Shown: one piece after another, positions 41,816 through 52,357 of the stretch
How positions within the stretch are numbered: position 1 is the first letter of the stretch
Layout: each line of letters starts with the position of its first letter
Source: Thermomicrobiales bacterium
Lineage (GTDB): Bacteria > Chloroflexota > Chloroflexia > Thermomicrobiales > UBA6265
DNA length: 64,000 bases
Assembly (NCBI GenBank): GCA_049841275.1
Contig: JASGDN010000036.1
Coordinates: forward strand, 10,173-74,172
Direction: 5' to 3'
Program-made: the position numbers and the translations under genes
The notes under the pieces: model-generated
Told to the model about the DNA's origin: nothing
Seen by the model: only the letters and a program-made list of their open reading frames with translations
Databases searched by the model: none

Positions 41816-44395
41816 TCATCCGAAGGACGCAAATCCGTCCACCGCGAGTGTATCCAGCATCCGCGCTACTCGGCGCGCCATGACCGGGAAGAATGCCCGG
41901 CCAGAACCGAGCAGATCGTGATCCTGGATCGTCCCCTCGCCCACCGCGTCCCAGGCCGTTCGCACGGCCGCATGGGAAGGTTCGTCCGGATTCAGGCACC
42001 ACGCAAGAAACTGCAGCAACGGACGTTCCAGTCGCGACACCGATCCGGAGAACTTCGGCAGCACTTTCATCAGCACCGCAAGATCGAACGTTTCCTCCAA
42101 AGAGGCCTGTGGCACGACGGCCTTATACGCTCCAACGAACGCCGCAATCTCATCGAAGACGCGATAGCCGAACTGCATCTGCGACCGGGCAAGCAGGGTA
42201 TTCAGGGCCTGGAGCCACGTCCGGATTTCCGGGTGCGCATCCACGATTCCGGCAGTCTCGCCCTTGTCGATCCCGACGAACCGGCCACCGCGCGAGAAGG
42301 CATCCAGCAGGGCACGCCGCTCGTCATCGCCGATGACCGCCGGAACATCCCCAGTCCGGGTTGGTGGATAGTCAGTGAAATCCACCTCCGAAAGCTCGAT
42401 GGTGAACGCGCGGTCCAGCACCTTCGGGCTGAACGAGTGCGTCGTCTCGTCCATATTGACGGTACCAACGATGTAGAGATTCGGTGGGAGATGGACGGTG
42501 GCGGGCGGAACGTCGGCATCGTCCTGATCCTCGGCAGGCTCCGGCCGTTCAATCCGGATCGCCTCGCGCGTCCAACCCTCGGCGTCACGCCCGGATTCGA
42601 GCACGCTCAGGAGGTCCGCGAAGTAGTACTCGACGTGGGCGAGGTTCATCTCGTCGAGAATGACGAACCAGGCGACGCGGTCATCGGTCGGTCCTCGGAA
42701 GTTCTCGGCGGCGCGCAGGACGAAGCGCAGGAACTCGGTCCACTCGTACGATCCGAGGAGCGGATTGTGGTATCCGAGCAGCGCCCGGCTGTCCCGCCAG
42801 TCCGGCCGCACGGACAGGAACAGGTTATTGGGAAGGGCCAACTTGGGAGAGGTGGCCGCGATGTCGATTTCTCCGAGGCTCTCGACCAGAACTCTCGAGG
42901 AGTGAACTTTGAAGCCAACGACATCAGCCTCGTCATTCAGCTCAGGTTCAAGGTATAGGGAGCCACCTAGACCCACGTCCTTGAGCTGAGGACCCAGCAC
43001 CTTGGTAAGGCCGAGATTCACCAATGGCGATCCAGGAGACATGTCTTTGATGTGACGGAGTGATCCTACTGCCTGGGTTCCATCGAAGTCGAGCCTGACC
43101 TGCCGCGTTTCTCCGACTTCCGGGATTCCAAAGCGTCCAATCTGCTTCGACGGCAGATAGAGCCGGTTGTGCCTCAAGGTGTAAGGCTTGAGCGTGACGC
43201 GGATCAGACCTTCTCCGTCTATCACCTGCGGCTCATCTGTTTCCAAGTTGGGTAGACAGCGCACGAAGGCTTGAGCCAGCTTGCTCTTCCCAGTGCCACT
43301 GATGCCAGAGAGGATCACGAACCCCTTCGTCTGGAGCGCGGCATAGAAGGTCGCCAGCTGCCGGTCGGTGTACGTCAGCCCCTGACCCCGCACGCTCCGT
43401 CGCATGACATCAAGGGCGTTGGTCGGCGCACCCTCGTTGTGGACAACCTTCTTGCCCACGATCTCCGCGAACTGTGCCTCTGTGAGCTGGAGGATGGTTG
43501 CCTGGCGGCTGAGAAGGGAAGCAGTACTTTCGCTGAGGTGATCGAGTTGTGTGCGATCGACACCGGTCCATTCCACCTGACGGCGGTGTCGATAGGGGAA
43601 GTCGTCGTCGACTAGCTTGTAGTCCCCAACGATAGTCCCAACGCCGTAGAGTTCGCCACGCGCTGTCGAGAGCACTCGATCACCGATTTGCATGCCGTGG
43701 ATGAAATGCCAAAGCGCCAATGCCCCAGCAGGGGACACACCGGTCTCTCGACGAAGACCGGCGATAAACCCTTCTCGATCCGCTGGAAGGTCAGGAACAT
43801 GACCGACTTCCTCCCATCCAATCGCGATGAACGAACCATCACGAAAGGTGGACCAGTCTCGATTGCCTCGCCCCGCCGAAACTTTCCAGTATCGAGTACT
43901 CGATTTCGCAGCGACACTGCCATCGTTCACATATGCCGGGGTTGGAAGCTCCTGACCGGACCGATCCTCAATCTCCTTCAGGGCAGCGGGATCGAACGAT
44001 GCCGAACGACTTGACCGAGTTCGCACCGAGCGAGCCAACACCTCCACAACCTCTCGATGAGACTCCGCTACTTCTTGCCACTCCGTTTCGAACTCAAGAT
44101 GCGGGACACTCACCCGGGCAAGGTCAATCCCGAAGCTATCGGTACGTCGGAAGTCGTCTTTGACAACCTTGATGACGGGAGAACTCGGTGCAGGGGCCTT
44201 CAGCAGGATTTCCAGTCTCCCAGAACCGTCACGTTGATAGAGCCACGTCGTGTACTCACTGACGAACACAATCACGCGACCTTCGTAGAACTGAACCGAC
44301 CACGAGTTCGGATTGATCTCATGGGCAATTCGGATCGACTCGGCCATCTGCCGATAGATTGCCATTCGTGCGTGTTCCAGCTTGGGGTCAATCAT
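41816..44395 (-). CDS. McrB-like AAA+ (AAA_5) GTPase/ATPase with two N-terminal putative reader domains
   Basis: Walker A GISGTGKS, Walker B WFVILDEMNLAH, McrB-type signature GTVNMDETTHSFSPKVLDRAF. A PUA/EVE-like segment (YWKVSAGRGNRDW..IAIGW..GDRVLSTARGELYGVGTIVGDY..RRQVEW). The first ~150 aa are paralogous to the upstream gene. Confidence 0.88.
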   Translation of the reverse strand: MIDPKLEHARMAIYRQMAESIRIAHEINPNSWSVQFYEGRVIVFVSEYTTWLYQRDGSGRLEILLKAPAPSSPVIKVVKDDFRRTDSFGIDLARVSVPHLEFETEWQEVAESHREVVEVLARSVRTRSSRSASFDPAALKEIEDRSGQELPTPAYVNDGSVAAKSSTRYWKVSAGRGNRDWSTFRDGSFIAIGWEEVGHVPDLPADREGFIAGLRRETGVSPAGALALWHFIHGMQIGDRVLSTARGELYGVGTIVGDYKLVDDDFPYRHRRQVEWTGVDRTQLDHLSESTASLLSRQATILQLTEAQFAEIVGKKVVHNEGAPTNALDVMRRSVRGQGLTYTDRQLATFYAALQTKGFVILSGISGTGKSKLAQAFVRCLPNLETDEPQVIDGEGLIRVTLKPYTLRHNRLYLPSKQIGRFGIPEVGETRQVRLDFDGTQAVGSLRHIKDMSPGSPLVNLGLTKVLGPQLKDVGLGGSLYLEPELNDEADVVGFKVHSSRVLVESLGEIDIAATSPKLALPNNLFLSVRPDWRDSRALLGYHNPLLGSYEWTEFLRFVLRAAENFRGPTDDRVAWFVILDEMNLAHVEYYFADLLSVLESGRDAEGWTREAIRIERPEPAEDQDDADVPPATVHLPPNLYIVGTVNMDETTHSFSPKVLDRAFTIELSEVDFTDYPPTRTGDVPAVIGDDERRALLDAFSRGGRFVGIDKGETAGIVDAHPEIRTWLQALNTLLARSQMQFGYRVFDEIAAFVGAYKAVVPQASLEETFDLAVLMKVLPKFSGSVSRLERPLLQFLAWCLNPDEPSHAAVRTAWDAVGEGTIQDHDLLGSGRAFFPVMARRVARMLDTLAVDGFASFG
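44300..44351 (-). repeat. Nucleotide-level direct repeat, copy 1 (inside the McrB-like N-terminus)
   Basis: 45/52 nt identical to 45246-45297, including a 21-nt perfect run cggatcgactcggccatctgc. It encodes ..QMAESIR.AH.INPNSW... Confidence 0.8.
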
Positions 44396-45365
44396 CGTTG
44401 CCTCGTATCACATCTCTCGCATACGCCGGAAGCCCGAGCGGCTCCCGTGCATGGACCGACAGCACGCCAAGCAAATCGGCGTCGAACTTGCGAGCCGTCT
44501 TTACTTGCGTCCGCACACCACTCGCTATGGTTTCCACCAGTAGTTCGTGCGCTTCGGCGAAGTCTTCGAGGAAGTCATAGATATCGTGTCCTCGCGCCCA
44601 GAACCACCCCGCCTGACCGTCAAGGACGGTATCGTCTATCCGTTGCTCGTCCCATCTTCTCGCGACGGGTTCCGGAACGTCGTCCAACCATACACACAAC
44701 TCGATACGCCCGGGACGCTGTTTCCATTTCGCACAGGGAAGATCCGCGATCGTCACCACAACCGATCGCTGGCTCCTGTAGAACGACCATGACCGATCGT
44801 TCGTTCGCTGCGCCAACGCGATGGTCGATGCCAGCCGATCGGCGACGATCCACGGCACACCGTCGAGCACCCCTTCGTCGAACGTCGGATCGTCGAGATA
44901 CTCCGGCCTCGGAAGCGTCGCGCCAGCCAGGGCCTCGACTTCTCTCATGGCACGCTCATCGTACCGTCGCCAGTAGTTCGGTTTGCTTCTGGCAGCCGTC
45001 GAGATCGCACGGTGGTGCGATTCCCGGAGCGCCGGGAACTTCTTCACCATCTCCAATACCGGAATCCGAACCCGGTGAAAGTCGCGATGGATCTTGAAGT
45101 CCGTGTCCTCTACATCGAGATCGTCAATATCCGGAGTTGGGTCCTGAAGAATGAGGTCAACGTTCCCGGTCATGTCCTTGCGGGGCGAGAAGGAATAATA
45201 GGCGCCCACCAGCAGGATGACCTGCTTCTTCCAGTACATCACGAGCCACGAGTTCGGGTTGATGTCGTGCGCCAACCGGATCGACTCGGCCATCTGCTGG
45301 TAGACCGCCGTCCGCGCTCGATTCAGCGCCTCACTCGCCAACGGCACAGCCGCGACGTCGCTCAC
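44388..45365 (-). CDS. Hypothetical protein made of two tandem copies of the ~150-aa domain also found at the McrB-like N-terminus
   Basis: The GTG start at 45365 overlaps the upstream stop (GTGA), with GGGAGGAG upstream. The stop overlaps the McrB-like ATG by 8 nt. ARTAVYQQMAESIRLAHDINPNSWLV.. compares with ARMAIYRQMAESIRIAHEINPNSWSV... Confidence 0.65.
   Translation of the reverse strand: MSDVAAVPLASEALNRARTAVYQQMAESIRLAHDINPNSWLVMYWKKQVILLVGAYYSFSPRKDMTGNVDLILQDPTPDIDDLDVEDTDFKIHRDFHRVRIPVLEMVKKFPALRESHHRAISTAARSKPNYWRRYDERAMREVEALAGATLPRPEYLDDPTFDEGVLDGVPWIVADRLASTIALAQRTNDRSWSFYRSQRSVVVTIADLPCAKWKQRPGRIELCVWLDDVPEPVARRWDEQRIDDTVLDGQAGWFWARGHDIYDFLEDFAEAHELLVETIASGVRTQVKTARKFDADLLGVLSVHAREPLGLPAYARDVIRGNDD
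45246..45297 (-). repeat. Nucleotide-level direct repeat, copy 2
   Basis: See 44300-44351. Confidence 0.8.
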
Positions 45366-46966
45366 AATGCTCCTCCCATCACCAACGGAGACATCCCGAT
45401 CTCGCTCACACCGCTCAACCCCTCGTTCAGGACAACATCCGCGACCGTCGTGGGGGCTATCGTCCCGGCAGCCGGCCGGAACGTCGCACTCGTCCCCGGA
45501 TAGAGCACCACCGCTGCCCGCACCCCGAGCGCATCTCGATACGCGTGCATCTTCACCAGGTCGTCGTCCTTCGGATCGTACGACACCCCAGCCGGAAGTT
45601 CCCCATCCTCCAGGACCGCCGGGGAGGTCGAGGCCACCATCCGGAATTTCGCGTCGAAGGCGACGCGCACGCCCTCCGCCGGTATCCACACGTAGTCTGG
45701 CCGCAATCGCACGCCGGAATACCCTCGCTCCGACCAGTTGTAGACCAGCGTTCCCGCCGTCCCGAACCGGCATGCGAACCGATGCCGCAGGCCATCAACC
45801 CCATCGCCGACCGCGTCCATCGTCCCCGGCAGATCGAGCGCCGCGCCGATCCGGTCCGCCAGTTCGAAGAAGACCCAGTATTCGTAGAGCGTCGCGATAT
45901 CCCGGATGTCGATCGCATGCTCGAGCCGGTCGAACAGCGGTTGCCGCGCCCGCTGGAACGCGAACCAGAGGCGGGTCAGCTCGCGATAACCATCCCGCCG
46001 CTGCAACACCCGAGACTCCGCCGGAATGCGCACCAGCGGTCCGACTTCGGTAAACTGGCGATCCCGCACAAACGCCCGCAACGCGCCACGCAGGGCAGCC
46101 AGACGGATGCGGTCTGCCTCCGGAACCCGCCCGTACCAGGTGGCCTCCGGAATCGAGTCCGCCCAATCCAGCATTCGCCGCGCAACGTCGAGCACGAAGC
46201 GATTCTCCGGCACGTCCAGCGTCTCGATCGGACGCCGCTGGCGCACGCGCTCGGGACGGAGCCGGTGAGCAATCCTCTGCTCGGAAAGGTCATTGTGCGT
46301 CGCACCCCGCAACACGCTCAGCATCGCGTCGAGATCGATGTCGGACGCCTCGACCAGCCGCACATCCTCATACACCTCATGCAGGCGCCGAAGCGGGCGG
46401 TGCGCGATCGCCTGCATGGCGCGCATCAGATCCTGCCCGTAGCGACGAAAGAAGTGATAGGCAAACAGGAGATTCGGCGGACGCCGCGCTTCCCGCACCA
46501 GGCGGCCGGTCGGCGCAGCGACCTGGAACGGCATCGGCATCTGGCGCGCGAAGAGGTCGAGCAGCAGGCCATCGGTGAAGGCCAGCGACTCAAGCGGCGT
46601 TGCAAACTTCTCGGCGATCACCTCGACCGCCATCCCCGGTCCAAGGTGGCGACCAGCCTTCATCGGCTGAATCCGGGCAAACCCAAGCTGGTTCTCAAAT
46701 CGCACTTCGAACACGTCGTGACCGGCGATCAGCGGCCCGATGCGTGTCGAACCGACGACGAGCTCATCCGCACCTGCGACGGTCACACGATAGGTCGCCC
46801 ACTCGTGGAGGAAGCAAGCTGGTCGATGGGGAAGTCCATGATACGCCGCGAGCGCCGCCGCAACGTGCGCTTCGGAGAATGCATTCGCTCGGTCCCAGCG
46901 GACGATCGTTATCGCTCCCGGCAGAGGATGGGCGCCGTCGTCCACGACCGAGAAACCGGCTTCCAT
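45362..46966 (-). CDS. DUF2357-like N-domain fused to a PD-(D/E)xK nuclease (McrC-analogous effector)
   Basis: C-terminal nuclease core YEYWVFFEL..RPDYVWIP..VAFDAKFR..KMHAYRDAL. The long N-terminal region resembles the DUF2357 proteins that partner McrB-like ATPases (from memory). ATG 46966 with GAGGA upstream. Confidence 0.8.
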   Translation of the reverse strand: MEAGFSVVDDGAHPLPGAITIVRWDRANAFSEAHVAAALAAYHGLPHRPACFLHEWATYRVTVAGADELVVGSTRIGPLIAGHDVFEVRFENQLGFARIQPMKAGRHLGPGMAVEVIAEKFATPLESLAFTDGLLLDLFARQMPMPFQVAAPTGRLVREARRPPNLLFAYHFFRRYGQDLMRAMQAIAHRPLRRLHEVYEDVRLVEASDIDLDAMLSVLRGATHNDLSEQRIAHRLRPERVRQRRPIETLDVPENRFVLDVARRMLDWADSIPEATWYGRVPEADRIRLAALRGALRAFVRDRQFTEVGPLVRIPAESRVLQRRDGYRELTRLWFAFQRARQPLFDRLEHAIDIRDIATLYEYWVFFELADRIGAALDLPGTMDAVGDGVDGLRHRFACRFGTAGTLVYNWSERGYSGVRLRPDYVWIPAEGVRVAFDAKFRMVASTSPAVLEDGELPAGVSYDPKDDDLVKMHAYRDALGVRAAVVLYPGTSATFRPAAGTIAPTTVADVVLNEGLSGVSEIGMSPLVMGGAL

Positions 46967-46973
46967 GCGTTCC

Positions 46974-47474
46974 TCAGAAGAGTTGCGCGACAAGCAACGC
47001 GATCAGCCCCAGCACGACGAGGATGCTGACGATCACCTGCCAGCGTCTCCCGATCGGAAAGCCCGCCGACGCAGGGGAAGCCTCCTCGCTCACTGCCGGG
47101 CCGGCGTGCGCGATCGCGGGAAGAGCCACCTGCGCGCGCAACTCCTTCGGAGAGGCCATCCGCTGCTGCTGGTCCCGCTCCAGCTCCACGGCCAGAACGT
47201 AGTCGCTCAGTTGAGCGGGATCTGCCTCCGTCCAGCCCAGGTCGAAGGGCGACCACCGGTTGTCCAGCTTGATGATCGTCTGCAAGGACGCCGACTCATC
47301 CTGCTCCGCCGCCTGCAACGCCAGATCGTACGAACGCTGGTCGCGGCGAAGATCGTCGGCAAGGTCGCGGCGCACGCTCTCCACGTCCCGGCCCTGATAG
47401 ACCGGATGCCAGGCGAAGAACGCACGCGTCCCTCCGGATGGGGTGGCCGAAGGCGATGAAAGGTGATCCGTCAC
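46974..47474 (-). CDS. Tail-anchored membrane protein (first gene of the operon), function unknown
   Basis: 166 aa from GTG 47474 with AGGAG 5 nt upstream. Single C-terminal helix WQVIVSILVVLGLIALLVAQLF. The stop lies 7 nt before the nuclease ATG. Confidence 0.5.
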   Translation of the reverse strand: MTDHLSSPSATPSGGTRAFFAWHPVYQGRDVESVRRDLADDLRRDQRSYDLALQAAEQDESASLQTIIKLDNRWSPFDLGWTEADPAQLSDYVLAVELERDQQQRMASPKELRAQVALPAIAHAGPAVSEEASPASAGFPIGRRWQVIVSILVVLGLIALLVAQLF

Positions 47475-47593: not shown

Positions 47594-47884
47594 CTACACC
47601 CGTTCGATGGACGTACCGCCCATGATCCCCCAGGATGTCGCCCGGACCGTCCGTCCATCGAACTCCTCCGGCGCGCCGTTGTCGCTCCGGCCTCCGATCA
47701 GCCGGATGCCCTCGACCTCGACGCGAACGCCGCGCGGGACCTTCAGGTGCACTCCACCCAGACCGGAGACGAGCTGGATCGAGATCGTTGGACTCGAGAA
47801 CGTCGCCTGCGTGAGATCGAGGTTGATCCCGCCCAGCAGGGAGATACGCGTCTCCGGATTCCCGGCAACAGGACCCGACGCCAT
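47594..47884 (-). CDS. LiaF/DUF2154-like C-terminal domain protein (possibly the 3' half of a frameshifted DUF1707 gene)
   Basis: ..ISLLGGINLDLTQATF..GGVHLKVPRGVRVEVEGIRLIGG.. is typical of the C-domain of DUF1707/LiaF-like proteins. Confidence 0.5.
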   Translation of the reverse strand: MASGPVAGNPETRISLLGGINLDLTQATFSSPTISIQLVSGLGGVHLKVPRGVRVEVEGIRLIGGRSDNGAPEEFDGRTVRATSWGIMGGTSIERV

Positions 47885-47907
47885 CGTGCCCGTTGGCTGT
47901 GGCGATG

Positions 47908-48108
47908 TCACCCCATCATCCGGGAGAGATCGGCAGCCAACGCCGCAAGCTGGCCGCGCGTGGAATCGTCCGTGATCGTATGGAGCCGCTCGAAGAGCTC
48001 GTCCGACGAGATTCGTCCTTCCGCCTGGGCGCGCGTCAGCCGGTCCGCCGTCGCCTCCCGTTCCGCGAGTGACGATCGAATGGCAGCCCCACCTTGTTGG
48101 TCGTTCAT
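47908..48108 (-). CDS. DUF1707 (SHOCT-like) domain protein, 66 aa (possibly the 5' half of a split gene)
   Basis: ..SLAEREATADRLTRAQAEGRISSDELFERLHTITDDSTRGQLAALAADL... ATG 48108 with AGGAAGGGG upstream. Confidence 0.55.
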   Translation of the reverse strand: MNDQQGGAAIRSSLAEREATADRLTRAQAEGRISSDELFERLHTITDDSTRGQLAALAADLSRMMG

Positions 48109-48446
48109 GCTGTGCCCCTTCCTGCGATTCCCGGTGTATCCGCACCACCACGCGAGACCACCATAGCGGCAGCGCAACATGACCCGAAGTGACGGCGATG
48201 CCTGTTCAGTCATGACGAATGTCACGGTTGCGCGGGCTCAGAACCGGTCCGCCGGACGATATACGGCTGGCATTCGGGAACAGCACGGCGAGCACCTCCG
48301 CCGCACCAGACCGCCATATGTAGGGCCGACACGAGGTCGGCCCGGTCTCGACGTTACGCAAGTCAGGCCAGGAGATGCACTGATGCCGGGTCCGCCGCGA
48401 CAATTCGCGGCAGACCCGGCACATCCTGCACCCTCTTCGTTCCTCG

Positions 48447-51161
48447 CTACAACGCGACGGTCCCCTCGTAGACGAGGTCCCGGCACCGCGCCTCGACTTC
48501 CGCCGGGTCGATGGCAAGCCGCGCCATGCCCGTCTCCTGCGCCGACTGCGCGACCGCCGCCGCGACCCGCGGCGAGACGCGCAGATCGAGGCTGTCCGGG
48601 ATCAGGAACTCCGGGCTCAGCTTCTCCGCCGACACGAGGTCGGCGATGGCGTAGGCTGCCGCAATCTTCATGTCGTCGCTGATCTGCCGCGCCTTCACAT
48701 CAAGCGCCCCCCGGAAGACGCCGGGGAAGGCCAGCGAGTTGTTGACCTGGTTCGGGAAATCGCTGCGCCCGGTCGCGACGGCAAACGCGCCCGCCTCCTT
48801 CGCCAGGTCGGGCATGATCTCCGGCGTCGGGTTCGCCAGCGCGAAGATCAGCGGATCGGGCGCCATCGAACGCACCATCTCCTGCGTCAGTGTGCCCGGT
48901 GCCGAGAGGCCGATGAAGACGTCCATGCCCGGCAGCACGTCCGCAAGCTTGCCCGTCTTGCCCTCGTGATTCGTCACCTCGGCGATGGCCCGCTTGGACG
49001 CGTCCATGTGACCCGGCCGGTTCGCGTAAATCGCGCCGGAACGGTCGCAGAGGATGATATCCGCCGCGCCGAGGACATTGAGCAGCTTGGCCACCGCGAT
49101 CCCCGCCGCGCCCGCGCCATTGATGACGATCTTGAGGTCCTTGATCTCGCAGTTCCGCAGCCGTGCCGCATTGATCAGCCCGGCAGCGACCACGATGGCG
49201 GTCCCGTGCTGGTCGTCGTGGAAGACCGGCATATCGAGCCGCGCCCGCAGCTTCTCCTCGATCTCGAAGCAGCGCGGCGCGGCGATGTCCTCCAGGTTGA
49301 TGCCGCCGAGCGACGGCGCGATGGCCGCCACCGTCTCCACGATATCGTCCGGATCGCGCTCGGCCAGGCAGATCGGAAACGCTTCCACCCCGGCAAGGGT
49401 CTGGAAGAGCACCGCCTTGCCCTCCATCACCGGCAGGCCGGCGGTCGGCCCGATATCGCCGAGACCGAGCACCGCCGAACCGTCCGTCACGATGCCCACG
49501 AGGTTCCCCTTCGCCGTGAACTCCGTCACGCGGGAGACATCATCGCGGATGACGTGCGCAGGCACGAGGGCGCGCGGCGGCACGTAGAGCAGGTTCAGGA
49601 TGTGGTGGTCCTTGATGGGGATCTTGCTCCGGATCTCGAGCACGCCGTGATTGCGCTCGCGGAGGTCGATCGCCTCCTCGCGGAAGGTACGCCCCTCCTG
49701 CCGCGTGCTCGGGCGCGCCGGATCGAGCCGCCCCTCGTACACGAACCGCCGCGTCTTTTCGGCGACCTCCTCCGGCGTCACGTCGCGCGTGGCCTCGCCG
49801 GCTTCGATCGCACCGCGCACCACCGCCGCCGCGATGGCTGGCGCCACCCGGAAGTCGAAGAGCGCCGGCACGATGTACTCCTCGTGCAACTGCTCGCCCG
49901 GCACCATATCGGCCAGCGCCCGCGCGGCATGGAGCATCATCCGCAGGCGGATGTTGCGGGAACCGCTGTCGAGCAGCCCCCGGAAGAAACCGGGGAAGAC
50001 CAGCGAGACATCCATCATGTTCGCGTAGTCGGAACGCCCGGTCGCAATCACCCGGGCACCACCGGCCCGCGCCACGGACGGCAGGATTTCCGGGATCGGC
50101 ACCGCCAATGCGAAGACGATCGGATCGGGCGCCATCGACCGGATCATCGCCTCGGTCACGATGTCGCCCGTGGAGAGCCCCACGAAGACATCCGCGCCCA
50201 CCAGCATGTCGCTCAGCGACCCCTGCTGCTGCGACCCGTTCGTCTCCTTGGCGACGTAAGACTTCGCCCAGTTCATGCGCTCGCCACGGCTGCGGTAGAT
50301 CGCCCCGGCACGGTCGCAGACGACAAGGTTCTTCACGCCGGCCCGCACGAGCAGGCGGGCGACACCGATCCCGGCGATACCCGCGCCACTGAGCACGACC
50401 TTGACCTTGTCGAGGTCCTTTCCCACCACCTTCAACGCGTTGTAGAGCGCGCCAAGCACGAGGATGGCCGTGCCGTGGTGCTGGTTGGAGAAGACCGGGA
50501 TATCCGCGCCCTTGTCGAGGTTGTCGGCGATGGTGAAGGCGCGCGGCGAGGAAATGTCGTCGAGGCAGATCGCCCCGAAGGTCGGCGCAATGGCGATACC
50601 GGTCTCCACGATCTCCCCGGCATCCGTGGTGTTGACGCAAATCGGCACCGCATCGACCCCGGCGAACGTCTTGAAGATGACGCTCTTGCCCTCGGCCACC
50701 GGCAGCTCGGCCTCCGGCGGCCCTCCTTCGCGGCCGAAGAGGTCGGAGCCATCGGAGAGGATGGCAACCGTGTTGCCACGGCAGGTGAGGTCGTAGGAAC
50801 GCCCGAGGTCATGATGGATGGCCATGCAGGCTTCCGCCACACCCGGCGTGTAGACGAGCGAGAGCATCGCCCGGTCGCGCACCGGCACCTTGGACGCGAC
50901 GCCGATCAGGCCGCGATAGCGGCGGCGATAGTCGAGCCCTTCGTCGTTCTCGTCGTAGACGAAGGTCCCTTCCGGCATCGACGCAGGTGTGCCATTCCGG
51001 CGCAGGACGAAGGAGATGGGAGCATCGCTGCGGTCGGTGAAGGCGTCATCCGCCAGTTCGGCGGTCTCGTCGATGCCCATCGGGGGAGCATCCTCGCCTG
51101 ACACGACGGAATCATCCGTCACGAGCACCGATGTCTCCTGCTCCGGTGTTGAGCGAGTCAT
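48447..51161 (-). CDS. Tandem double malic-enzyme-like protein (two complete malic enzyme units fused, 904 aa)
   Basis: Unit 1: VYTPGVAEAC, AEGKSVIF, LDDIS, VFSNQHHGTA, SGAGIAGIG. Unit 2: LYVPPRALV, TDGSAVLGLGDIG, MEGKAVLF, NLEDI, VFHDDQHGTA, NGAGAAGIA. Confidence 0.85.
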   Translation of the reverse strand: MTRSTPEQETSVLVTDDSVVSGEDAPPMGIDETAELADDAFTDRSDAPISFVLRRNGTPASMPEGTFVYDENDEGLDYRRRYRGLIGVASKVPVRDRAMLSLVYTPGVAEACMAIHHDLGRSYDLTCRGNTVAILSDGSDLFGREGGPPEAELPVAEGKSVIFKTFAGVDAVPICVNTTDAGEIVETGIAIAPTFGAICLDDISSPRAFTIADNLDKGADIPVFSNQHHGTAILVLGALYNALKVVGKDLDKVKVVLSGAGIAGIGVARLLVRAGVKNLVVCDRAGAIYRSRGERMNWAKSYVAKETNGSQQQGSLSDMLVGADVFVGLSTGDIVTEAMIRSMAPDPIVFALAVPIPEILPSVARAGGARVIATGRSDYANMMDVSLVFPGFFRGLLDSGSRNIRLRMMLHAARALADMVPGEQLHEEYIVPALFDFRVAPAIAAAVVRGAIEAGEATRDVTPEEVAEKTRRFVYEGRLDPARPSTRQEGRTFREEAIDLRERNHGVLEIRSKIPIKDHHILNLLYVPPRALVPAHVIRDDVSRVTEFTAKGNLVGIVTDGSAVLGLGDIGPTAGLPVMEGKAVLFQTLAGVEAFPICLAERDPDDIVETVAAIAPSLGGINLEDIAAPRCFEIEEKLRARLDMPVFHDDQHGTAIVVAAGLINAARLRNCEIKDLKIVINGAGAAGIAVAKLLNVLGAADIILCDRSGAIYANRPGHMDASKRAIAEVTNHEGKTGKLADVLPGMDVFIGLSAPGTLTQEMVRSMAPDPLIFALANPTPEIMPDLAKEAGAFAVATGRSDFPNQVNNSLAFPGVFRGALDVKARQISDDMKIAAAYAIADLVSAEKLSPEFLIPDSLDLRVSPRVAAAVAQSAQETGMARLAIDPAEVEARCRDLVYEGTVAL

Positions 51162-51410: not shown

Positions 51411-52025
51411 CTACCTGGCCGGCGAGGCCGTGGCCTCTGGCGAGGTGTGCGGCGTGCTCTCCGGGGATGCGGCCGGCGACGCTGCCGGTGAGGCCGCTGG
51501 CGATGCGACCGGCGTTCCGATCTGGGACGGCGCCGGGGTCGAGCCCGTGTCAACCGAGCCGATCACGGGCGCAACCTGCGTGGCCTCCTCGGGCGACGCA
51601 ACGGGTGTTCCGATCCCGGACGGCGCTGGCGTCGATCCCGTCGTCTCAGGCGTCCCGAGGACAGGCCCGACAACTGCGGTCGCCGATGCATTCGCGGTCA
51701 CCGGGGTTCCCCCCACGGGGCTTCCAGTGAACACCTCGGCGGTAGCCAGATTGGATGCCGGCGTACTTGCCCCGGTTACCGCTGGCGAGCCCTGTGCCTC
51801 GGGAGTCGAACCGCCCACCTCCGGAGTCGAAACCGTGGCCGGGGCCTCGGTCGGTGGGCTTGTCGGCACTTCGGTCGGCGCGCTCACCTCGGTCGGCGCC
51901 GGGGTCGGCGTCTTGTCCTTGTCCGAGCCACCGCCGCAGCTCACCAGCAACAGCGTGCTCAGGCTCAGCGCCCCCACGCCGAGCGCGCGTCGAACGCCGG
52001 TCGGTTGTCGTGTCCATGCACCCAT
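51411..52025 (-). CDS. Lipoprotein composed almost entirely of Pro/Thr/Ala/Ser/Val/Gly low-complexity repeats
   Basis: Lipobox LLLVSCGG. AAGGAG upstream of ATG 52025. Repeats such as GTPVASPEEA and GTPVASPAASPAASPAASPES. Confidence 0.6.
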   Translation of the reverse strand: MGAWTRQPTGVRRALGVGALSLSTLLLVSCGGGSDKDKTPTPAPTEVSAPTEVPTSPPTEAPATVSTPEVGGSTPEAQGSPAVTGASTPASNLATAEVFTGSPVGGTPVTANASATAVVGPVLGTPETTGSTPAPSGIGTPVASPEEATQVAPVIGSVDTGSTPAPSQIGTPVASPAASPAASPAASPESTPHTSPEATASPAR

Positions 52026-52357
52026 CAACCCGTTCTCCTTCACACAAGCATCGTGACCGTGGCAAAACGGTCCTTGCGAATGCAGCAATCGTCATGCGGT
52101 CCGGCAAGGGGATGCTCCATCACCGAAAACACAACGACTCACCCATTGCAACATGAGGGCCACTGGACATCTGCCCGGTCATGACCCTCCGCCTGTATAC
52201 GTCGCGATCCCACTTCCGGTCTTCCCAAGGCGTGCGTTTGCAGCATGTCCCTTGCTCCCGGCCAACCGAGCCAGTACCCTGCGCTCCTATTGGACGTCGT
52301 GGATCGGGGAGTCGCCCCCGAGCCGGCCGTGGCCGACATCATGAGGAGCAACCACCT

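Follow-up and report, generated by a model that had tools for sequence, protein, structure and literature searches.

A tandem malic enzyme gene in a Thermomicrobiales genome

The DNA examined here is a 64,000-nucleotide stretch (the window) from the genome of a Thermomicrobiales bacterium (GenBank assembly GCA_049841275.1, contig JASGDN010000036.1, positions 10,173 to 74,172 of the forward strand). The gene of interest lies on the minus strand at window positions 48447..51161 and encodes two malic enzyme (ME) units within a single polypeptide of 904 residues. Its open reading frame (ORF) runs for 904 codons with zero internal stops, and a putative Shine-Dalgarno sequence, GAGGTGA, is located approximately 8 nt 5' of the ATG at 51161. 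An earlier model-generated reading of the same DNA (the original prediction) had proposed that two complete ME units are joined in this protein, and domain searches agree. The Pfam families malic (PF00390; 126.6 bits vs a cut-off of 23.1) and Malic_M (PF03949; 159.2 bits vs a cut-off of 23.5) each match two stretches of the protein, and the two halves share 45% identity across 421 residues (approximately 59-477 against 484-900; E = 1e-112). No match to the ACT domain was found in the protein with Pfam, and the PTA family is likewise absent among its Pfam matches. All ME-domain matches of the 4.28-Mb source genome fall within this one ORF, and thus the tandem is the only malic enzyme of the organism. 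The main parts of the gene are as follows.

48447..51161, minus strand: whole gene for the 904-aa tandem malic enzyme (ME-ME), including the stop codon; a single ORF with PF00390 and PF03949 present twice each
50961..51161, minus strand: acidic N-terminal extension, aa 1-67, predicted to be disordered and of varying length among relatives
49731..50960, minus strand: unit 1, aa 68-477 (hidden Markov model match 68-457), a complete ME fold with a remodelled pocket and the proposed donor of a Tyr arm
49686..49730, minus strand: short inter-unit linker, aa 478-492, where the predicted local distance difference test (pLDDT) score dips to 66
48450..49685, minus strand: unit 2, aa 493-904, a canonical catalytic ME unit except for its Tyr loop, with PDB entry 5cee as its best match among solved MEs

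Unless stated otherwise, conservation figures refer to a set of 121 close homologues. Among the first 60 residues there are 13 D/E vs 4 K/R, and residues 1-49 have pLDDT values below 50 in the AlphaFold2 (AF2) model of the chain. Between 9 and 83 residues precede G75 in the homologues, and conservation of the extension is confined to the genus, so the true start codon is uncertain outside of the genus. The length of the linker is nearly constant, with G477 and A497 separated by 20-24 residues in all 121 homologues.

A catalytic set divided between two units

The full set of ME catalytic residues is present in this protein, but it is split. Y104 resides in unit 1, whereas K582, E624, D625, D649, and D650 reside in unit 2, and neither unit alone carries the complete set. 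The relevant motifs of unit 2, all on the minus strand, are these.

49569..49589, minus strand: altered Tyr loop LYVPPRA, aa 525-531 (Y526); Y and P528 in 117/121 homologues, P529 in 121/121
49449..49484, minus strand: canonical DGSAVLGLGDIG, aa 560-571; 120-121/121 at each position
49416..49427, minus strand: MEGK, aa 579-582, with the catalytic Lys K582; 121/121
49284..49298, minus strand: NLEDI, aa 622-626, with metal ligands E624 and D625; 121/121
49197..49223, minus strand: FHDDQHGTA, aa 647-655, with the Lys partner D649 and the metal ligand D650; H, D, D, Q, H, G, T, and A each 121/121
49101..49118, minus strand: Rossmann motif GAGAAG, aa 682-687; G682 and G687 120/121, G684 121/121

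The corresponding positions of unit 1 read as follows.

50835..50855, minus strand: canonical Tyr loop VYTPGVA, aa 103-109 (Y104); Y, T, P, G, and V invariant in 121/121
50721..50753, minus strand: DGSDLFGREGG, aa 137-147, in place of the canonical DGSAVLGLGDIG; D140 and F142 each 120/121
50685..50696, minus strand: AEGK, aa 156-159, with K159 kept; 120/121
50553..50567, minus strand: CLDDI, aa 199-203, in place of NLEDI (E to D201, with D202 kept); D201 and D202 each 121/121
50466..50492, minus strand: FSNQHHGTA, aa 224-232, in place of FHDDQHGTA; N226 119/121, Q227 and H228 each 121/121
50370..50387, minus strand: intact Rossmann motif GAGIAG, aa 259-264; G259, G261, and G264 each 121/121
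50088..50111, minus strand: ALAVPIPE in place of ALANPxPE (pocket Asn to V354), from the unit-to-unit alignment
49989..50021, minus strand: NMMDVSLVFPG in place of NQVNNSLAFPG (pocket Asn to D384); D384 121/121

All of the motif states named in the original prediction are present in the two units, although two of its statements need amendment. It held that the SNQHH sequence of unit 1 loses a metal-ligand Asp. That residue is indeed gone (D650 is replaced by Q227), but the description was incomplete, as the other aspartate of the HDD motif is lost as well (D649 is replaced by N226). Comparison with the homologous D174 and D175 of Bdellovibrio MaeB places N226 where the Lys-coordinating Asp used to be and Q227 where the metal-ligand Asp was. 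It also held that the YTPGV motif of unit 2 is replaced by YVPPRA; the motif is replaced, with the refinement that a tyrosine, Y526, is still found within the altered loop, whose consensus among the homologues is Y-[VL]-P-P-x-A-L. The Y-[VL]-P-P portion is maintained order-wide, but outside the order this loop is variable or missing.

The unit 1 pocket differs from its canonical counterpart at further places, since two substrate-pocket asparagines are replaced (N777 by V354 and N807 by D384). When E624 to D201 is counted with them and with the two HDD changes, each of these five substitutions is fixed in 119-121 of the 121 homologues. Residues essential to ME-family chemistry are therefore missing from the unit 1 pocket, and the retention of all catalytic and metal ligands by unit 1, which the original prediction had named as one outcome that would refute it, is not observed. 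In one family of the same order (f2), unit 1 has additionally changed LDD to LDH and EGK to EAK, and the former change argues against retained ME chemistry in this pocket. Other elements of unit 1 are conserved throughout the order, namely the Rossmann GxGxxG motif, the CDR Asp, FSNQHHGTA, and NMMDVSLVFPG.

Constraint on the two units

The original prediction regarded one of the two active sites as apparently crippled. Several pocket residues of unit 1 have indeed been replaced, but the unit as a whole is slightly more conserved than unit 2. Mean pairwise identity is 78.0% for unit 1 vs 75.6% for unit 2, and in 84% of the pairs sampled conservation is higher in unit 1. Columns conserved at a level of at least 95% number 205 in unit 1 and 194 in unit 2. 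Furthermore, 36 of the 47 pocket positions of unit 1 are conserved at this level, vs 169 of the 343 positions in the rest of the unit (odds ratio 3.4, p = 5e-4). By these measures, unit 1 is subject to strong purifying selection in this order and not to decay. The near-invariant pocket substitutions, taken with the intact Rossmann motif, suggest that unit 1 has kept a ligand-binding or regulatory role.

Distribution of the tandem arrangement

The tandem was found in 129 of 151 genomes sampled evenly across the order Thermomicrobiales, and in 76 of the 83 high-quality genomes. Matches across the order extend over five families at 62-96% identity, and nearly all of these are single frames of ~840-1000 aa that cover query residues ~65-901. 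The partial matches within the order are located at contig ends or in fragmented assemblies. A word-indexed search also recovered hundreds of metagenomic proteins of 837-915 aa with the same double domain content, some on contigs of up to 2 Mb, and those among them that carry a taxon label are assigned to Thermomicrobiales or Chloroflexia. Within a sample of 401 genomes of the phylum, the tandem is carried by the source genome, by each of the 5 sampled members of its order, and, at ~53% identity, by two other families; elsewhere in the phylum the enzymes are single-unit or ME-PTA forms. Where source names are given for tandem proteins, they read malic enzyme or malate dehydrogenase (oxaloacetate-decarboxylating).

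This distribution bears on the concern, raised in the original prediction as a way in which it might fail, that two adjacent genes were joined artificially in the assembly, e.g. by a missed stop codon; sequencing errors and frameshifts were considered with it. Nothing was found in favor of such an artefact. The same uninterrupted frame recurs in the 129 genomes, in hundreds of independent metagenome assemblies, and in two further families of the phylum, and the length of the linker is conserved. The artefact explanation is rejected on these grounds, and the probability left to it is negligible.

Judging from source names, related proteins occur beyond Chloroflexota as a 708-aa form with a shortened N-terminal unit in Planctomycetota, a partial tandem in "Deltaproteobacteria bacterium", and a partial sequence in Methylococcales. 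A pattern scan for HDDQHGTA and DLTCRGNTV drew in more than 600 ordinary single-unit MEs and returned 80 loci with no tandem among them; it is uninformative regarding distribution in named organisms. Genomes of the same class outside the order (e.g. G011, G036, and G231) carry single ME units in frames of ~476-633 aa, mostly 476-530 aa. In these single-unit proteins the match begins at approximately query residue 505, and it is preceded by an N-terminal extension of ~100 aa of another kind, which may be an ACT domain like those of some actinobacterial MEs of ~470 aa.

Divergent relatives and the history of the duplication

More distant relatives come from an HMMER search run exhaustively over 1.84 billion representatives, and all units of the 50%-identity representatives were aligned to one profile. 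Three classes of relative were recovered: full tandems (P0122, P0123, and P0125), stub forms of 650-730 aa, and ordinary stand-alone or ME-PTA enzymes. In the stub forms, a unit 1-like module is reduced to ~130-190 residues at the N-terminus, ahead of a complete C-terminal unit (C-unit). Individual stub proteins (P0127, P0129-P0137, P0146, P0159, P0160, and P0166; 650-773 aa) show a YTPGV remnant, a spacer of ~100-200 aa, and an ME unit without the Tyr loop, and one stub cluster is labelled Planctomycetota. A 407-aa, unit 1-like protein from Methylococcales (P0151) was considered as a free-standing unit 1 gene, which would represent a heterodimer before fusion, and was rejected, as it is labelled "partial" and resides on a 1.4-kb contig.

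The division of residues seen in the Thermomicrobiales protein recurs among these relatives. N-terminal units (N-units) keep the canonical Tyr loop, Y[TS]PGV, in 18 of 20 cases, including stubs of ~150 aa that lack the NAD domain, whereas the canonical loop is found in none of 20 C-units (one being borderline), where many unrelated sequences replace it. The tyrosine itself is gone from the loop position in most stub-lineage C-units. Conversely, a complete canonical pocket is present in 0 of 20 N-units and in 17 of 19 C-units. The N-arm Tyr is lost in P0123 and P0150, and both belong to the three proteins in which the C-unit pocket is altered; these exceptions thus support a coupling between arm and pocket. 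In P0150 (727 aa), the HDD motif of the C-unit reads NDA. The P0123 cluster (860-892 aa) has no Tyr in either loop and keeps HDDQHGTA, with changes at the pocket Asn positions and in the GLGD motif. P0123 and P0150 may be wholly non-catalytic or may perform different chemistry. The third altered pocket is that of P0131 (MEGK to MLGK), which retains its N-arm Tyr.

One further protein, P0138 (848 aa; its cluster is represented on 35+ contigs), presents the two kinds of unit in reversed order. Its first unit has a full pocket and a Tyr loop replaced by LASAAAG, and its second unit is strongly decayed, with AYTPGVG kept but no Lys, acidic ligands, or Rossmann motif left. P0138 falls outside of the tandem clade, and its nearest kin are actinobacterial MEs of ~470 aa, some of which carry Pfam ACT domains; no relatives of P0138 were found beyond its own 90% cluster. 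From its sequence, P0138 looks like an independent origin, in one lineage, of the same division of labour in mirror image.

The original prediction called for a phylogeny of each half. In a maximum-likelihood tree of 123 separated units, the N-units, C-units, and stub C-units form one clade (SH-aLRT support 95), within which the N-units are monophyletic (98). This topology indicates a single ancient duplication in one lineage of small MEs, after which unit 1 was eroded in some of the descendant lines.

Predicted structure and the proposed exchange of arms

A model of the 904-residue chain was built with AF2 from a 70-sequence alignment, and it reached a mean pLDDT of 88.1 and a predicted template-modelling score (pTM) of 0.88. 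Predicted disorder is limited to the first 49 residues, and confidence dips at the linker. A pTM of 0.88 for two units of ~400 residues means that their mutual placement is predicted with confidence. The best match in sequence among solved MEs is 5cee (E = 1e-126, query residues 490-881). Foldseek superimposes one unit on the full, arm-swapped chain of 5cee with a TM(target) score of 0.98 and a root-mean-square deviation (rmsd) of 1.1 Å over 387 of 387 residues. This superposition on a complete arm-swapped chain implies that the arm of the unit is predicted to be extended and swapped relative to its own body. Together with the comparative pattern, these features support the proposal that the two halves exchange arms.

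Small prokaryotic MEs form a tight dimer in which the catalytic site is built with residues from both protomers (PMC7902834), and Y52 of MaeB is contributed by the partner monomer, whose helix is swapped (Harding et al. 2021, PMC7902834). Because the Tyr of YTPGV acts in trans in small bacterial MEs, the arm of unit 1 and the pocket of unit 2 together would make one complete canonical site, and the altered arm of unit 2 and the altered pocket of unit 1 would make the other. Both suggestions of the original prediction, a pseudo-enzyme regulatory half and an obligate intramolecular dimer, therefore point in the right direction. Its picture of two units with complementary defects is not the best reading, as the pocket of such enzymes receives the YTPGV tyrosine from a partner.

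Proposed mechanism and competing explanations

The explanation favored here, with a probability of approximately 70%, is that the protein is a single-chain pseudo-heterodimer, derived from one tandem duplication and fusion, in which a canonical composite site is combined with a second pocket that is remodelled, conserved, and probably non-catalytic. Duplication and fusion of an ancestral small-type ME would have placed two protomers in one chain. The unit 1 arm (Y104) would then complete the unit 2 pocket (K582, E624/D625, D649/D650, N777, and N807), yielding one standard site for oxidative decarboxylation of malate per polypeptide. We infer such donation, inside a single chain, from the distribution of motifs. 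As the tandem is the only ME of its genome and is present in 129 of 151 genomes of the order, it is expected to provide the ME activity.

The reciprocal site would combine the Y-x-P-P arm of unit 2 (Y526) with the unit 1 pocket (D140, F142, K159, D201/D202, N226, Q227, V354, and D384). With the Lys-activating Asp, one metal ligand, and two pocket asparagines missing, this site most likely does not function as a malic enzyme. The unit 1 pocket would instead still bind a ligand, either a nucleotide or an effector or both, in the service of regulation or stability. On this reading it would be a conserved, non-catalytic ligand site that has probably kept dinucleotide binding and may sense a metabolite, and it might be speculated that the new invariant acidic residues D140 and D384 fit a ligand that bears an amino group or a cation. 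A more specific version of this proposal is that the unit 1 site and the Y-x-P-P arm form an allosteric sensor. It would respond to a nucleotide and/or, through D140 and D384, to a metabolite resembling malate (e.g. aspartate, fumarate, or oxaloacetate), and would act through the pseudo-dimer interface to control the one catalytic site. That version is tentative and is held with less than even confidence.

Several observations weigh against the pseudo-heterodimer proposal. Y526 could serve the unit 2 pocket if like units pair between chains. Also, K159, two acidic residues, and the Rossmann motif are retained in unit 1, which leaves room for some catalysis there. P0123 lacks Tyr in both loops and yet keeps HDDQHGTA, which means that the rule relating arm to pocket is not absolute, and the reversed-order arrangement of independent origin is represented by one tight cluster. 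Finally, the packing that underlies the confidence of the AF2 model is deduced from its score, and the placement of Y104 in the pocket of unit 2 is a proposal.

Competing explanations differ mostly in what they ask of unit 1. The simplest would have it serve as a scaffold and arm donor only, providing Y104 and a dimer-like interface, with a pocket that binds nothing and a conservation that stems from folding and interface demands. The erosion of the N-unit elsewhere to a stub of ~150 aa, which retains only the arm and a portion of the first subdomain, indicates that nothing more is strictly needed, and the LDD to LDH and EGK to EAK differences of family f2 affect this same pocket. Yet the order has retained a complete unit 1 that is slightly better conserved than the catalytic unit, pocket positions are overrepresented in its conserved columns, and GxGxxG, the CDR Asp, FSNQHHGTA, and NMMDVSLVFPG are kept order-wide. 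Moreover, the Y-x-P-P loop of unit 2 is conserved here but drifts where the N-unit pocket is gone. A role restricted to scaffolding is thus considered unlikely.

Two further alternatives grant full catalytic competence to arrangements other than the single composite site. If both units were active, unit 1 would decarboxylate malate, or run a related NAD-dependent reaction, with relocated residues (e.g. D140 and D384), and the protein would be a two-site or bifunctional enzyme. The unit 1 site does keep K159, D201/D202, the Rossmann motif, and Y526 in trans, and it is a highly conserved pocket with two new invariant acidic residues. This view has to contend with the replacement of the Lys-partner Asp and the metal-ligand Asp by Asn and Gln, the loss of two pocket asparagines, and the absence in family f2 of the second acidic ligand too. 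N-unit pockets also decay freely in sister lineages, and no ME-type family model scores unit 1 over unit 2, leaving activity of both units quite improbable. Alternatively, pairing might be homotypic and join like units of separate chains (unit 1 to unit 1' and unit 2 to unit 2'), such that the unit 2 pocket uses Y526 of another chain and the fusion merely tethers two homodimers. The preservation of Y526 in 117 of 121 homologues would fit, but in most relic lineages the C-arm lacks Tyr while the pocket remains canonical and the N-stub keeps YTPGV. The reversed-order protein P0138 follows the heterotypic logic, the pTM of the single-chain model points to confident intramolecular packing, and the two prolines of Y-x-P-P replace the conserved T-P-G geometry. 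Homotypic pairing is accordingly given only a slim chance, slightly below that of two active units.

Relationship to known malic enzymes and similar systems

Judged by its sequence, the protein is an ancient, order-wide tandem ME and a variant of the small prokaryotic ME family. The small prokaryotic MEs are arm-swapped homodimers of ~380-440 aa subunits (PDB 5cee from Phytoplasma, 1vl6/2hae from Thermotoga, 2a9f, and 1ww8/2dvm from Pyrococcus), with which each unit of the tandem shares both Pfam domains and the fold. Their catalytic Tyr comes from the N-terminal arm, as is proposed here, and unit 2 holds every pocket residue. However, they are symmetric and possess two identical sites, whereas the tandem has fused protomers of 45% identity and would have only one canonical composite site, the other being remodelled and fixed in that state.

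The hybrid MaeB/TME/DME enzymes (PDB 6zn4, 6zng, and 9krt; PMC7902834) embody the same concept, in that a small-type ME with a trans Tyr (Y52') is fused to an enzyme-derived ligand sensor that is catalytically dead. Their sensor is a C-terminal PTA fold, whereas that of the tandem would be an N-terminal second ME unit that is also proposed to contribute a catalytic residue. The model for the hybrid MaeB type (NF009501, PRK12861) scores 663.8 vs a cut-off of 1178 and is matched only over profile positions 8-415 of 764. The models for the large-type ME (SfcA/eukaryotic, ~560 aa; NF010052) and for the malolactic enzyme (NF041582) likewise remain below their cut-offs, with scores of 216.4 vs 326 and 124.4 vs 850, respectively. 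Large-ME structures are matched at E values of ~1e-17 to 1e-24 with an rmsd above 5 Å. In the ACT-domain small MEs (~470-490 aa, from Actinomycetota and the same class), an accessory module lies N-terminal to the small ME unit as in the tandem, but this module is an ACT domain of ~90 aa rather than a full ME paralogue of ~410 aa.

The alpha and beta subunits of plant mitochondrial NAD-ME are diverged paralogues that work as a heteromer, and in some C4 lineages one subunit is reported to be mainly regulatory. Unlike the tandem, they are large-type enzymes encoded by separate genes, with the Tyr in cis, and they are unfused and lack the logic of a composite site. Mammalian hexokinase I and eukaryotic phosphofructokinase arose by tandem duplication of a whole enzyme, where one half remains catalytic and the site of the other half is now a ligand-binding or allosteric site. 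These cases offer an analogy only, as their fold and chemistry are unrelated and their inactive half donates no catalytic residue. The twist relative to these enzymes and to MaeB is that the "dead" half of the tandem would supply an essential catalytic residue. No description of a tandem or fused ME was found in the literature searched, which comprised open-access text only, and such absence is not proof of novelty.

Implications for malic enzyme regulation and annotation

Malic enzyme operates at the central node between the tricarboxylic acid cycle and pyruvate, and its regulation differs by class, through fumarate and ATP sites, a PTA sensor, or ACT domains. If the pseudo-heterodimer proposal is true, the tandem would constitute a further ME class, a covalently fixed heterodimer with half-of-sites character in which one paralogue lends a single catalytic residue in trans and has a conserved, re-purposed pocket. 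The series from full tandem to stubs of ~150 aa to the convergent, reversed-order case would provide a natural record of symmetric homodimers turning asymmetric, and would help to define the minimal trans-acting element. Should the allosteric version also be true, the protein would be the ME counterpart of the route taken by hexokinase I and phosphofructokinase, and this would be the normal regulatory mode for central carbon metabolism in a whole bacterial order. There are consequences for annotation as well, as the tandems are labelled "NAD(P)-dependent malic enzyme" and the stub forms of 650-730 aa can be misread as an ME with an unknown N-terminal domain.

Genomic neighborhood

The surrounding genes were considered as clues to function and were set aside. 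They comprise a McrBC-type restriction system, a low-complexity lipoprotein gene, and genes of the inositol monophosphatase and NagB/Pgl families, none of which is functionally linked to the ME gene. The McrBC-like restriction locus is located downstream of the ME gene at 41816-46993 on the minus strand and encodes an AAA_5 (McrB-like) protein of 859 aa, a 461-aa protein without assignment, and a DUF2357 plus PD-(D/E)XK (McrC-like) protein of 543 aa. Directly upstream of the ME gene, at 51411-52088 on the minus strand, is a gene for a 225-aa protein that consists almost entirely of a low-complexity tract rich in P, T, A, S, V, and G and has no Pfam match. Just downstream, at 47594-48151 on the minus strand, a 185-aa ORF shows a weak match to a LiaF-like C-terminal domain (E = 3e-4, below the Pfam cut-off).

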